Positions 1 through 64,000 of a stretch of 64,000 nt of DNA are shown piece after piece. Source of the DNA: a virus; the IMG/VR virus record IMGVR_UViG_3300030228_000019. One strand, given 5' to 3'. The translations under genes were made by a program, and so were the position numbers. The notes under the pieces were generated by a model. The model was not told where the DNA came from and made no database searches. It was given only the letters and a program-made list of their open reading frames with translations. Position 1 is the stretch's first letter. Each line of letters opens with the position of its first letter.

Positions 1-167
1 ATACTGCAATACAAATCAAGAAGTGTATTATTTTGTAATTTATAAATGTCTGTTGGCTTAACCATTACCTGTGCATCAATTAATGTTTTTATTAAATCAA
101 AAAATTCATTTTTTGTCATTTTATCAATAATTATTATAAAAAGAATGTTTAAAATAAAAAACAAATA

Positions 168-175
168 TTTAAATA
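168..175 (+). promoter_or_regulatory. Archaeal TATA box (TTTAAATA) upstream of ORF 207
   Basis: TTTAAATA about 30 nt before the ATG; the same motif lies 20-35 nt upstream of starts at 21145, 29521 and 30887. Confidence 0.55.
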
Positions 176-206
176 TATAAAATATTAATATTATAGTATT
201 GATAAT

Positions 207-839
207 ATGGCTGGAATTAAAACAGTTTTGCTCATTATTTTAATAGTGGCAGTAATTTTTGCATATTTGTATATATTTCATCCAAGTTATATTGGTAAAA
301 AATTAACAACTACTACTGTTTTACCATCAAATAATACAATAACTAATGCCTTTAATAATTATACAACAACAGCAGAAAAAGAATTTAATGTTTCTAATTC
401 AAGTGTTGTTTCAATTTTGCCAAACAAAGAACCCTATTTATTAAATGAGGTTCTTGAGTCTAATCCCAACCCAATACTTATTATCAATTATACTTATAAT
501 GGAAAAATATATCAGTTACCACAATGGTTTTCTCTATCATTTTCAAATGTAACAGCAAATCTTCCAAATTTTAATGGTCAACATGTTCAATTTTTATTTT
601 TTATGAACAAAACAGCAGCAATAAATTATACTGGAAATCCAGCTAATAGCACACCAATGATATTTAACTACAGTGTTGCTGTGAATGGAACTACTTATAA
701 ATTTACATTTATAAATAATAAAAATAATAAAATAATATCTGTCCTTTCAATTCCATTTAATAAACATCAAGTATTTTATACAATTGGTTTTGAATATAAT
801 AAAACTGTTTATTTAATTCCAGACATAGCAATTGGTTAA
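207..839 (+). CDS. Membrane-anchored secreted protein
   Basis: N-terminal TM helix; Asn/Thr-rich with many N-x-S/T sequons. Confidence 0.8.
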   Translation: MAGIKTVLLIILIVAVIFAYLYIFHPSYIGKKLTTTTVLPSNNTITNAFNNYTTTAEKEFNVSNSSVVSILPNKEPYLLNEVLESNPNPILIINYTYNGKIYQLPQWFSLSFSNVTANLPNFNGQHVQFLFFMNKTAAINYTGNPANSTPMIFNYSVAVNGTTYKFTFINNKNNKIISVLSIPFNKHQVFYTIGFEYNKTVYLIPDIAIG

Positions 840-844
840 TAAAA

Positions 845-3800
845 TTATGTTCTAACATTTTCATATAATGCATAGCCATTAATTGATGAGCCAGATATTG
901 ACCTTGTTGAACTTTCAAGAATATACTCAGATTTTGATATATATAAAAGGTTTGTAGTTCCATCATTATTTACCAGTTTGGTGTTTGCAAACCCTCTAAT
1001 ATAAGCATCAGTTTTACACACCTTATTATTACAAAATCCATATGATACACCACTTGGTTCAGAAGGAATTGTTGTATTGAAAGTTCCTGGTGCTATACTG
1101 ATTTGTGTGGTGGTATTATATATAATAATTCCAGCAACTTGTGAATCAGCTACTCTTTCAGGGGTTCCACCTATAATACCACAACTATGATAAAAATTCT
1201 TTGATGTTATAAGATAATTATATAAAGATTGATACTGGGTGACAAAATTGTTGCAAGTGCTTGGTGGTGAATCAGTAATATTTATATTATAACTTTCAAA
1301 TATAGGAACAGTATAACCATAAAATAAATTAAAGGTAGCTGGTTCCACTGGTAAAATTGAATAACTATTTGATAAATTAAAAAAAGTATCATAGCCTGGT
1401 CCTATATTTAAATTTTGCAGAGATTGTATTGTAACAAGTGGTGTATAACCAAATGTTTTAGTATATGCAGAGATTCCTGTGTTTCCACTAGGACCATTAA
1501 TGTCATAATTAGCAGTTCCATTTGAAAATAATGCTGTTGAAATAAGACCACTTTTAGTTACAGTTGAAACCTGTCCATTAATATTTCCAATAACTAAACA
1601 ATTATCAAGTATTCCAGAATCATAACATTTTGTATAATTTCCATTATTTGAAATTGTCTGTGAACTTGAAACAAAATGATTATTATTGGTGTTGTAAAAT
1701 CCTTCTGTTAGGGAGTATGTGGTTCCACTATACAAGTTAATATATTTAGAAGGGGCTGGTAATACAAAAAGATGTTGTGTGGCTATACTTGTGTTTTTTA
1801 TATAACTGCTATCAAAAGAAGTAAAGATGGGACCACCTGTAATATTATAAGGAACAGTTGTCCATCCAAGTGTTGAAAAACTATAAGGTTGACCAACTAA
1901 ATTTGTTGTTATATTTAGTGGAACAAGGTAAATTGCAATTATAGTATAATTATTTTTATCTGACAAACCAGATATTGTTTTACCAGTTACACCAGAAATT
2001 ATTTCATTTTTTATACCACTAACATATGTTTTTGTTGTATTATCATAAATGGTTAATAAATAATTTTTATTTTTTAAATAATTTGAATAATAAAATTTTA
2101 CTGGATTAATATCTATACTATATATTGTTGGTGAACCCTCTAAATAATAAGTTGTTATATTTGTATATGGTTCACTGGTATTAACTGTTGTATAACCAAA
2201 ATTAGTAGAAACAGCATGAGGAATTAATGAAATATCACCAATACTATCAGGATAGTTATACACAGTGATTGTTCCTGTTGATTTTATTATTTTATTAAAA
2301 AGCACTGATACATTTACAGATATAGTATCAATATATGTTTTATTTATTTTTGGATAACTTTGATTAAACAAGATTGCTGCTTCTTGTTCTGTTATATTAA
2401 TTGGTAAAGAAGTTGTTGATGTTGGTGGTGCTTTGTTTGATTTCAAAACTGTTCCATTTTTTAAATAATATGTAAATTGTATTGTGCTTTCTGGTAAATT
2501 TATTGAATAATTTTGTGAATTATATACAAATTTGTTTTTTGTATTTATATAAAAATATGTTGTATTATCACCAGGTATATCTTGGAATATAGCACCATTT
2601 GAATTTCCATACACTGGGTCAAAACTGTTACCCCAGTTTGAATGTGCAGACACCTGATAAAATGAAAAATTATCATTACCACTGTTTAATTCAGGATTTG
2701 AATACATTTCTATTTTTCCAGCATTATTTATATAAACAGTCAAATTATTTATATTTAAATTTGATGTTGTAAGATTATTAGCAACTGCTGTTGGATAAAT
2801 ATCTGATATTAACACATTTTTCCAAGCAGCATTTAAATACCCTGTTCCTGTCACATGACAGTTATTTCCACTGCACCCACCAGTTCCACCACCAGTGGGT
2901 GGAGGTGGTGGTATTACATGATAGTTTGCTATTATTGTAACATTTTGGCAACCATTAAGTGCTTTCCAATTGTAATTAAAACTTTCTGAATTAGAATTTG
3001 AAATTTTATCACCATTGCAATAAACATTTTGTGATACAAAACTTCCACTGCTTGAAGAGGTTGCTGCAAATGTCCATGTAAATCCAAATGTTGTATTTAA
3101 AGTATTAGCTGAAAATACATTTGTTTTATTAAATGTAAAAGTATAAGGTGTTGCTGTATTTGTTTGATTAGACCAGCCTATTAATGAATTTGTTGGTATT
3201 GCATTTGCTGAAAATGTTGTTGAAACACCACCTAAATTACTGGTTGCTTCCCATGAAATTGTTGGTAAACTAATCTTGAAATTAGCAGTATAGTTTGTTG
3301 CATTTACAACAGTAAATGTATAAGGATTTTGTGTTATTGTTGTTCCAGCATGGGTCCAATTACTAAAAGCATAATATGTATTTGCATTTCCAGTTATTAT
3401 TACTGATTTTCCTTTTGGAACAAATTCACTAATATTATTTCCTGTTATAGTTTTATTATTATATGGTGTATATATACTAACATTTCCTCTTGAACTATTT
3501 GAAGTTTTTACACTAATATTATATTCATATTCATAATCAGCTTGTAAGGTGCAGGGTGCAAATGATAATGATTTAACTGTTTGTGATGGATTAAACAAAT
3601 TAAATCCAGTTGAACATGATAATGAAACAGATGTGTTAAAATCAACAAATGCTAATGCTTTGGTCTTTGTTTTTGTTAAAATAGCAGGATAATTAAAAGA
3701 ATAAGGTGCTGCATCCTGATACATTGTATATGGTAAATTTCTTACAGATTGTTGAATACAAAATCTTGAGGCATCAACACCACAAGTAATATTTGTATCA

Positions 3801-62555: not shown

Positions 62556-62676
62556 AAAAGATAAAAACTTTTTATTAAATTGGTTTGCAGTATAGCAATT
62601 GATTATTATAAAGCTAAATTTAATAAATTAAAAAAGTATCTGTAATTTTAAATTAACACATTGTCTTATTTTATGA

Positions 62677-63060
62677 GTGACACCAGTGAACTCTTTCAAA
62701 AAACATCAGTTTATAAAAAGCATATTTGAAACAGTTACCATTGGTGCTGCTTTAATTAGTATATATTTGTTTTTAATAACAAATTTTGTAAACATAGGAT
62801 TACCAATTGTTATTATTACTATTATATTTTCTTTCATTATTTTTATGGCAATTATTTTTGTATTTTATAGCAACATAACAATTGAATGGTATAATTTTAA
62901 AGAGGAAATTGAATTTGAAATATCATCTTTAAAAACCACAAAATTATTTCTAAAAACAATGATAGAATTTTCTCAAAAGCCAAGACTTAAAAAAGAGTTA
63001 AAAAAAGAGATAAAAGAAATAAACAGCAATATCAGAAAATTGAATAAAAAACTTATTTAA
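62677..63060 (+). CDS. Two-TM membrane protein
   Basis: Two hydrophobic helices and a basic coiled tail. Confidence 0.65.
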   Translation: MTPVNSFKKHQFIKSIFETVTIGAALISIYLFLITNFVNIGLPIVIITIIFSFIIFMAIIFVFYSNITIEWYNFKEEIEFEISSLKTTKLFLKTMIEFSQKPRLKKELKKEIKEINSNIRKLNKKLI

Positions 63061-63326
63061 ACAGAGGAAGACTTTATTTGACTCCAATATGGGTTTTCAT
63101 CAGGTTTTACAGTTTTTATTCCATCAAAAAGCAGTTTTTCAATTTTTGAATAATCAATTTCAATATTTTTCTTTCTTAAAGATTCAACTTCAATAACAAG
63201 AGGTTCAACCAGCCAATCTTGATAAGTATTTTGGTGTAAGTTCATTTTTAGGTTTTTATTTATTTTTTTTGTAACATCTAAAAGTCTGTTTATTTCTTTA
63301 TCTGGTCCATTATTCATAAAAGTCAC
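63057..63326 (-). CDS. Hypothetical protein
   Basis: 89-aa ORF. Confidence 0.55.
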   Translation of the reverse strand: MTFMNNGPDKEINRLLDVTKKINKNLKMNLHQNTYQDWLVEPLVIEVESLRKKNIEIDYSKIEKLLFDGIKTVKPDENPYWSQIKSSSV

Positions 63327-63431
63327 ACAATACTATTGTATTATTAAATATTTATATGTTTCAGTTTTCACTAAAACACTTTAATACACAGTTGTATGGT
63401 ATTAGAGCAACAAACAGAAAAAAATAAACAA

Positions 63432-63998
63432 TTAGTCAAATATTTTTTCTAATATTACTTGTATTTCTTTTTCTCCTTCTGTTTCATTATATATATTTTT
63501 TATTTCATAATCAAATGGAAGGCTGTCTATTTCAGTTTCAGTTGGGTCATTAAGTTCAATTTCTGTTGGTTCTCTTCCATATATTTCCTTATATTTTTTT
63601 ATTCTATTTTTAATATCAGGACTTATTTTAACAACAAATAACTTTCTTTGTGTGTTTCCTGTATATAAAAGATATGAAAGTTCATTCATAAATCTAACAT
63701 CATCAACTATAAAAGGAAATTGTTTTTTTGTTGCAATACTGGTTGCAAGATATTTTATCCAAACATCAGGGTCAATTTCTCTCATTTTTGAACCAAGTTG
63801 CTGCAATAATCTTCTGTTTTTTTCCTTCATACCAAAAACATCTTTTGCAACATCTTTTAGTTTTGCTGCTATTGAAACTTTATAAGCTGTAATACCTTGC
63901 TTTTCTAATTCTTCTTTTAATTTATCAGCATAATATGTCTTTCCAGCAGCCATGTGTCCTATAAAAACTACTCCATCATATTTTATTTGTTTATCCAT
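63432..63998 (-). CDS. Phage-type deoxynucleoside monophosphate kinase
   Basis: GHMAAGKT, A.KLK, RRLLQQLG..MR..DPDVWI, IVDDVRFMNE. Confidence 0.82.
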   Translation of the reverse strand: MDKQIKYDGVVFIGHMAAGKTYYADKLKEELEKQGITAYKVSIAAKLKDVAKDVFGMKEKNRRLLQQLGSKMREIDPDVWIKYLATSIATKKQFPFIVDDVRFMNELSYLLYTGNTQRKLFVVKISPDIKNRIKKYKEIYGREPTEIELNDPTETEIDSLPFDYEIKNIYNETEGEKEIQVILEKIFD

Positions 63999-64000
63999 TT

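Follow-up and report, generated by a model that had tools for sequence, protein, structure and literature searches.

We analysed a stretch of 64,000 nucleotides of a virus from the IMG/VR record IMGVR_UViG_3300030228_000019 (hereafter the window), which represents about 55% of a replicon of approximately 116-118 kb (hereafter the element) and in which the CG dinucleotide does not occur at all. A preliminary description, made from the sequence alone, had claimed this complete absence and had estimated a GC content of around 25% with roughly 1,000 CG expected. Our computed count bears out the claim and shows both estimates to be accurate: 0 CG were found against 1,041 expected from base composition at 25.54% GC, an outcome whose Poisson probability is about e^-1041. 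The features located in the window are listed below, with window coordinates, strand, and the basis of each assignment.

5688-8690, minus strand: VirB4/TraG-P-loop-type ATPase of 1000 aa, part of a conjugation-like module resembling a type IV secretion system (PF19044, PF12846, PF01935; weak matches to plasmid DUF87/TraE genes)
11613-14267, minus strand: FtsK/HerA-type ATPase of 884 aa (Pfam scan)
14284-16209, plus strand: T2SSE/VirB11-type secretion ATPase of 641 aa (Pfam scan)
16204-17172, minus strand: archaeal-type flap endonuclease FEN1, used as the marker for finding copies of the element and relatives
19442-20116, plus strand: protein of 224 aa with a predicted PD-(D/E)xK nuclease core (predicted structure, Foldseek)
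20340-21119, plus strand: NTP_transferase, a sugar-nucleotide gene (domain match)
21172-22035, plus strand: Nudix NDP-sugar hydrolase-like protein (domain match)
29747-30430, plus strand: Fic/DOC family protein (Pfam scan)
32418-32493, plus strand: tRNA-Lys(UUU), CG-free, with T loop TTCAAAT
35421-35960, minus strand: nucleoside diphosphate kinase, NDK (Pfam scan)
36114-36184, plus strand: tRNA-like sequence with an aberrant anticodon loop, CG-free, directly upstream of tRNA-Leu(CAA) (ARAGORN)
36188-36272, plus strand: tRNA-Leu(CAA), CG-free
37000-39430, no strand: region poor in open reading frames (ORFs), with nested inverted and perfect tandem repeats, CG-free
47998-49689, minus strand: SNF2-family helicase, also present at about 40% identity in the CG-normal sister clade described below
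49667-52891, minus strand: DUF2341-domain protein of 1074 aa (Pfam scan)
52867-53457, plus strand: DUF1599 protein, first of a nucleotide-metabolism cluster at 52867-61795 (Pfam scan)
54404-54994, plus strand: NT5C deoxynucleotidase, same cluster (Pfam scan)
58526-58999, minus strand: dCTP deaminase/dUTPase, same cluster (Pfam scan)
61109-61795, minus strand: RNase T-like exonuclease, same cluster (Pfam scan)

The FEN1 protein was found letter-for-letter on contigs of several metagenomes of the Joint Genome Institute (JGI) and in Logan re-assemblies, and the element was walked contig by contig with exact-protein look-ups, by which all but approximately 2.4 kb was recovered. Its contigs, of 106-118 kb, share the same gene order and start at different points, and one Logan contig joins both ends of a JGI contig; therefore, the element is circular or circularly permuted, with a length of about 116-118 kb. 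Outside the window it carries genes for replication and repair (a family-B DNA polymerase (PolB), a PriX-domain primase protein, Mre11, Rad50, Topo VI A and B, and a ligase-like protein), together with TFB-like, PAPS-reductase-like, AbiEii and DnaJ genes. No ribosomal or other core cellular genes are present in the element, which is therefore an autonomous extrachromosomal element, plasmid-like or virus-like. The repeat-rich region at 37000-39430 includes inverted repeats (37906-38011 with 38218-38294, and a 66-nt hairpin at 38067-38203) and perfect tandem repeats (38219-38262 and 38634-38673), and it is possibly a replication origin or a regulatory hub. No detectable relatives of the element were found in INPHARED, PLSDB, IMG/VR, or the GTDB representative genomes: a megablast query of 25 kb matched nothing in phage and plasmid collections, and single-protein locus scans and a PolB-profile scan of the IMG/VR and GTDB genomes found nothing. 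The SNF2 ORF in its TTG-start form had no exact-protein match.

The absence of CG is not accompanied by a shortage of its component bases in other combinations. The GC dinucleotide occurs 1,295 times in the window, with an observed/expected ratio (O/E) of 1.24, and the corresponding values are 1.27 for CC, 1.31 for GG, 1.33 for CA, and 1.28 for TG, in agreement with the earlier remark that GC, CC, and GG are common. The only GC-rich stretch of the window, a partial palindrome within an ORF at 2868-2912, had also been described as free of CG, and it indeed has none. The same holds beyond the window: when the count was extended to the rest of the element, as the preliminary description had proposed, the 116,468-nt composite contained 0 of the 1,919 CG expected, its 15.2 kb of non-coding DNA contained 0 of 183, and the 29 loci that were collected (546 kb summed, redundancy included) were CG-free throughout.

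CG is absent alike from coding DNA, non-coding DNA, tRNAs, and the junctions between codons. With translation table 11, the window contains 69 ORFs with 17,564 codons that cover 82% of its length. All 344 of their Arg codons are AGA or AGG, the codons GCG, CCG, TCG, and ACG each have a count of zero, and junctions of the type NNC/GNN number 0 against 281 expected, despite about 1,160 codons ending in C. The avoidance of CGN, NCG, and NNC-GNN, and the CG-free T loops TTCAAAT and TGCAAAT, had been read correctly from the letters. Among the RNA genes, only tRNA-Lys passes the Rfam gathering threshold, while the tRNA-like sequence at 36114-36184 and tRNA-Leu(CAA) fall below it. Two explanations at the level of translation were considered and rejected: an alternative genetic code, since table 11 already gives 86% coverage by ORFs of at least 100 aa, and the loss of CGN-decoding tRNAs alone, which leaves the zeros at codon junctions and in intergenic DNA unexplained.

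The PolB family is tight, and its tree (a quick search, midpoint-rooted) consists of two sister clades with 100% support each. In the clade of the window, PolB proteins are 55-61% identical and other orthologues 30-60%, and CG is zero in every lineage for which DNA was obtained. The divergent lineages, which come from other SRA, ENA, and NCBI sources and from unrelated studies and assemblers, are the following.

L010, 11.4 kb: CG 0 against 200 expected
L030, 14.4 kb: CG 0 against 226 expected
L043, 22.9 kb: CG 0 against 354 expected
L044, 14.7 kb: CG 0 against 244 expected
L046-54 (nine further samples), 20.8 kb for L046: CG 0 against 407 expected

When the composite and the divergent lineages are pooled, the count is 0 CG against approximately 3,350 expected. 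Over the coding DNA of this clade, the proportion of third-position C, as C/(C+T), is 0.000 before codons that start with G (n = 7,323) and 0.193 elsewhere. The sister clade, represented by 8 loci sampled only around PolB and with PolB proteins 42-44% identical to that of the element, uses CG normally: its CG O/E is 0.68-0.94, CGN accounts for 14% of its Arg codons and NCG for 11-14% of the codons in four-fold families, and its C-ending codons show no junction avoidance (0.212 before G against 0.201 elsewhere). Contigs of 98-125 kb are on record for this clade. Since the sister clade has normal CG, the common ancestor used CG normally and the CG-free state is derived. The lost CGs turned mostly into CA and TG, because NCA takes a share in the CG-free clade (0.61-0.70) similar to that of NCA and NCG together in the sister clade (0.55-0.65); the O/E of CA and TG in the sister clade is 1.0-1.15, against 1.33 and 1.28 in the window. 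The Sulfolobus virus SIRV2, with the same GC content, has a CG O/E of 0.65 and lacks none of the words purged from the element.

The exclusion of CG also continues in present-day variation. Strains at 99.9% identity differ at 89 single-nucleotide polymorphism (SNP) positions, none of which has a CG-containing allele against approximately 7 expected (P about 0.001), the expectation being calculated from the SNP types and their local contexts with both mutation directions taken as equally likely. CG exclusion is thus ongoing in current variants.

CG is not the only word missing from the element, and the lost tetranucleotides, overlooked in the preliminary description, are the most informative context for its absence. 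In the composite, GATC (about 200 expected), GTAC (168), and GGCC (65) have a count of zero, as do the hexamers GATATC (20), GTATAC (17), CCATGG (11), and CCAAGG/CCTTGG (20), the last two absences together amounting to CCWWGG. The window itself is without GATC, GTAC, GGCC, GATATC, GTATAC, and CCWWGG. Strong depletion was also observed for TCATGA (3 against 47), CATG (O/E 0.48), and CTAG (O/E 0.37) in the composite, and all of its zero-count 4-mers other than CG-containing words are palindromes. GATC, GTAC, and GGCC are zero in all CG-free relatives where the expectation is large enough to judge, and some lineages have lost additional words: L043 also lacks AGCT (56 expected), CTAG (33), and GAATTC (13), and the L046 lineage also lacks CTAG (38). 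In the sister clade, GGCC is the only word lost (0 against 54), and several palindromes are avoided there in an ordinary, partial way (O/E of 0.31 for CATG, 0.31 for GTAC, 0.29 for CCGG, 0.38 for CTAG, 0.50 for GATC, and 0.53 for TCGA). These absences bear the mark of restriction-site avoidance, in a form that is unusually absolute. Archaeal specificities on record include GGCC (SuaI), GTAC (PabI), and methylases for GATC, AGCT, CTAG, and CGCG (PMC5809426, PMC10609329).

All sixteen NCGN contexts are gone in the CG-free clade. The non-palindromic ones (ACGA, ACGC, GCGA, and others), which occur at ordinary levels in the sister clade, are zero here too, so it is CG as such that is targeted. For the same reason, we rejected the explanation that several different 4-bp restriction-modification sites, each containing CG, are avoided. 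CCWGG, the site of the near-universal crenarchaeal 5-methylcytosine (m5C) methylase, is not depleted (63 observed against 46 expected). As a separate observation, GCAGC/GCTGC is zero in SIRV2 (9 expected) and in several loci of both clades (L031, L033, and L043, with 7-15 expected), yet the composite contains 112 copies where 48 are expected. Hexamers that contain CAATG are likewise missing from SIRV2 (20-29 expected), and such gaps may be further host-specific forbidden words.

As for the host, searches with PolB, FEN1, and the NTP-transferase returned only clade members or distant archaeal homologues, and an Atlas search with Topo VI-B gave no taxonomic signal. One PolB cluster (at least 90% identity) is found in NCBI metagenome-assembled genomes (MAGs) labelled Micrarchaeaceae, Saccharolobus, and Conexivisphaerales; we read these conflicting labels as mis-binning of a mobile element, so that they indicate an acidic hot-spring habitat only. 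In a phage collection, the DUF2341 domain matched only Sulfolobales rudiviruses and lipothrixviruses, and GGCC, the SuaI site of Sulfolobus acidocaldarius, is absent from the element. Based on the archaeal FEN1 and PolB homologues, the MAG labels, the DUF2341 matches, and the absence of GGCC, we infer that the host is probably a thermoacidophilic archaeon, possibly a member of the Sulfolobales.

The element was also searched for enzymes that could recognise CG. No DNA methyltransferase was identified in it by Pfam (including PF00145 and the precomputed hits), PADLOC, NCBIfam, or motif regular expressions (PCQ/ENV); a single NPPY motif, in a 738-aa protein, is at chance level. No restriction-enzyme family was matched by Pfam, PADLOC, or NCBIfam, a PHROGs search of the element proteins found no methylase, restriction enzyme, or structural match, and an Atlas search with a conserved 472-aa protein provided no lead. 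Protection by modification is unlikely, since no DNA methyltransferase was found in the element. As a side observation, the genes for the NTP-transferase and the Nudix NDP-sugar hydrolase-like protein lie at 20340-23020 together with a conserved neighbour of 319 aa, and these sugar-nucleotide genes, with DUF1599 ('nucleotide modification associated domain 1'), NT5C, dCTP deaminase/dUTPase, NDK, and a P-loop kinase-like protein, recall phage DNA hypermodification pathways.

The 224-aa protein at 19442-20116 is predicted to have a PD-(D/E)xK core with a Hjc/EcoRV-like fold and an N-terminal helical extension (pLDDT 95, pTM 0.92). In Foldseek, the best matches of the model were Hjc proteins (E 5e-4), with EcoRV and HincII weaker. 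The protein belongs to no Pfam family, its family has about 190 (189) representative sequences, some of which have zinc ribbons of the Topo-I type, and a profile search of the PDB with this family gave no match by sequence. It is conserved in the CG-free lineage L046 at 35% identity. From its modelled structure, this protein would be the sole nuclease candidate of open specificity found in the element, with a fold that gives no tie to CG, and a resolvase would be its more ordinary interpretation.

Other observations concern single genes. Toxin-like genes (Fic/DOC at 29747-30430, a DUF6036 nucleotidyltransferase at 31446-31949, and an AbiEii nucleotidyltransferase at L022:7380-8054) are possible addiction or counter-defence modules. 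In one JGI assembly (L006:11242-13841), two ORFs of 636 and 230 aa stand in place of the intact FtsK/HerA ATPase gene, and the BLAST alignment has a 53-nt duplication at the break (window 12305-12357), which suggests either variation between strains or a broken gene copy. The ENA lineage L043 carries six tandem paralogous ORFs of about 120 aa (L043:19444-21735) beside genes for a HD-domain protein and a CCA-adding/poly(A) polymerase-like protein, and the window's element has neither the array nor these neighbours in the corresponding region.

The preliminary description had proposed that CG is actively counter-selected, for example by a host or self-encoded nuclease or modification system. The active, clade-specific removal of CG is strongly supported by its derived state, its presence in at least five lineages, the 0 of 89 SNPs, and the lost palindromes, whereas the element yielded no nuclease or methyltransferase that recognises CG. 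On balance, we lean towards the interpretation that purifying selection by sequence-specific DNA nucleases, one of them recognising CG, purged the clade. Nucleases are preferred to plain methylation decay because GATC, GTAC, GGCC, and the lineage-specific palindromes are wholly lost. According to this proposal, restriction-modification-type nucleases, which we infer to be encoded by the hosts, would cleave element DNA that bears their sites, and an element without a protective methyltransferase would survive by carrying no targets, that is, as a 'stealth' genome, with each lineage having purged extra palindromes of its own. One selecting agent would recognise CG either unmodified or methylated in a previous host and then attacked by a methyl-dependent nuclease; this agent must recognise the bare dinucleotide, because every NCGN is gone, including the non-palindromic ones. 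A broader proposal, which we regard as evenly balanced, is that a DNA-targeting defence or mobile-element weapon with 2-bp CG recognition (a nuclease or a sensor, of a type not known to us from prokaryotic immunity) exists in thermoacidophilic archaeal communities and that the CG-free clade is its footprint, left through synonymous recoding of more than 100 genes.

Several considerations weigh against selection by such nucleases. To our knowledge, no nuclease or defence system of 2-bp CG specificity has been described in any archaeon. The persistent archaeal Type II methyltransferases that have been surveyed have only 4-5-base sites (PMC10609329). For selection alone to clear about 1,900 sites, a small and roughly constant benefit per site is needed, the change of NCG into NCA and the excess of CA and TG are equally expected from methylation followed by deamination, and the loss of the tetranucleotides could have a cause separate from that of CG. 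If selection is nevertheless the true cause, the element points to a CG-recognising nuclease, sensor, or methyl-dependent system that is still to be discovered in archaea of hot springs, and such an enzyme, thermostable and CpG-specific, would be a useful reagent.

The same fate of the lost dinucleotides, which went to transition products (the NCA share, and CA and TG at 1.33 and 1.28), is what would be expected if mutation, and not selection against cleavage, held CG at an equilibrium of zero. Every CG in the hosts would then be methylated to m5C by an M.SssI-like enzyme, or hit by a CG-preferring cytosine deaminase, and at 70-90 °C deamination would outrun repair, so that CG would decay to TG and CA faster than it is re-created. 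m5C is an expected mutator in hyperthermophiles (PMC10609329), and a fast directional process clears about 1,900 sites more easily than selection acting site by site. We nonetheless judge this explanation, the main rival to selection by nucleases, unlikely: the total loss of GATC and GTAC and the lineage-specific loss of CTAG, AGCT, and GAATTC are left unexplained by it, the known crenarchaeal m5C site CCWGG is not depleted, the searches of the element described above yielded no C5-methyltransferase, and such a host would erode its own genome. Genes for rRNA and tRNA need CG, and the known methylation-driven CpG depletion levels off at an O/E of approximately 0.2-0.5. If mutation were the true cause, the element would provide the first example of CpG having been erased completely, with the deamination of methylated cytosine, accelerated by heat, as the probable driver. 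Under either cause, the CG-normal sister clade constitutes a ready natural control.

Selection by nucleases would also operate if the cutters belonged to the element itself, which would use frequent cutters of CG, GATC, GTAC, GGCC, and other words to break down the host chromosome as a source of nucleotides and to shut off the host, while its own site-free DNA is immune. The element does have a rich set of salvage and DNA-processing genes (NDK, NT5C, dCTP deaminase/dUTPase, the RNase T-like exonuclease, Mre11/Rad50, and a metallophosphatase), as well as the conserved protein with a predicted PD-(D/E)xK fold and no detected methyltransferase, and lineage-specific forbidden words could track lineage-specific nuclease genes. 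A self-encoded weapon is, however, rather improbable, considering that no restriction-enzyme family was matched in the element, that the nuclease-fold protein is nearest to Hjc resolvases, which have an ordinary replication function in archaeal viruses (SIRV2 has a resolvase too), that at least 7 specificities would take several nucleases, and that the avoidance of GGCC is common to the sister clade and fits the known host system SuaI.

We assign a very low probability to selection by a route other than cleavage of duplex DNA, be it a CG-specific RNase (a toxin or CRISPR ancillary protein), a 2-nt CG protospacer adjacent motif (PAM), or CG-dependent silencing. Dinucleotide-specific RNases and PAMs of 2-3 nt exist, and erasing a PAM entirely would blind both adaptation and interference; however, the 15 kb of non-coding DNA, of which the putative origin with its many repeats is a part, is CG-free too, every co-purged word is a palindrome, as is characteristic of dimeric DNA enzymes, and CC is over-represented in the window, the PAMs known to us for Sulfolobales being CCN, TCN, and GTN, none of them CG. 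An artefact of sequencing, assembly, or data processing can be practically dismissed, as near-identical sequence was obtained from different assemblers and archives (JGI, Logan, ENA/MEGAHIT, and NCBI MAGs) and divergent relatives from unrelated studies, the ORFs are intact and encode normal proteins with AGR Arg codons, and sister-clade contigs in similar data contain CG.

The preferred interpretation, selection by sequence-specific nucleases, places the element closest to the avoidance of restriction sites by phages and plasmids, of which staphylococcal phage K, without GATC, and IncP plasmids, without many 6-bp sites, are examples. As in those cases, short palindromes of the kind that restriction-modification systems recognise are wholly or nearly wholly lost, there is no protective methylase, and the lost sets differ by lineage; unlike them, the element has lost a 2-bp word (about 1,900 expected) and three 4-bp words, across 30-60% protein identity. 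The CpG depletion caused by m5C in vertebrates, their small DNA viruses, and Mollicutes with M.SssI-type methylases resembles our case in the deficit of CG, the excess of TG and CA, and the unaffected GpC, but the known cases are partial and extend over the host genome, whereas here the count is exactly zero, one clade only is concerned, palindromes are purged too, and no CG methylase was detected.

Chlorella viruses, with enzymes such as M.CviPI (GC), Nt.CviPII (CCD), CviJI (RGCY), CviAI (GATC), and CviQI (GTAC), demonstrate that recognition of 2-3 bp exists and that frequent cutters can be turned against host DNA by a large DNA virus, and their GATC and GTAC specificities overlap with the words lost here. 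These viruses, however, keep the sites and methylate their own DNA, and no homologous enzymes were found in the element. In the suppression of CpG driven by ZAP and TLR9 in vertebrate viruses, a sensor likewise selects against a bare dinucleotide and synonymous recoding keeps the coding capacity; this suppression belongs to eukaryotic innate immunity and is naturally partial, zero being reached only in engineered DNAs (synthetic CpG-free vectors).

Among archaeal elements, the pNOB8-type conjugative plasmids of Sulfolobales and the Rudiviridae and Lipothrixviridae live in the same kind of habitat as the element, which for its part carries VirB4/TraG-like ATPases, the structural-type domain DUF2341, a dCTP deaminase, and about 25% GC. 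The element differs from them in being 3-4 times larger and in having its own PolB, primase, Topo VI, and Mre11-Rad50, and no similarity beyond single domains was detected. With the pNOB8-type plasmids, the matches are at the domain level only (P-loop_TraG/AAA_10, FtsK/HerA, and T2SSE ATPases), no relaxase or integrase was seen, and a tblastn search of PLSDB gave no Sulfolobus plasmid among the matches listed. With the Rudiviridae and Lipothrixviridae, which have a characteristic major capsid protein and a linear genome with inverted terminal repeats, only the DUF2341 domain is shared: no structural protein was matched in PHROGs, and the contigs of different assemblies are circular permutations of one another. 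The element belongs to a large and uncharacterised family that relies on replication machinery of its own.

In our search of the literature, neither a natural replicon free of CG nor an archaeal nuclease specific for CG was found to be reported, and we know of no other natural replicon above 100 kb that lacks a dinucleotide entirely. A zero count of CG across 30-60% protein identity means that any single CG gets removed, under a pressure that by far exceeds known restriction avoidance and CpG decay in both strength and specificity. In kind, the phenomenon is restriction-site avoidance; it is in degree and in target that it differs from the known cases, with a dinucleotide erased from a natural genome of about 116 kb.

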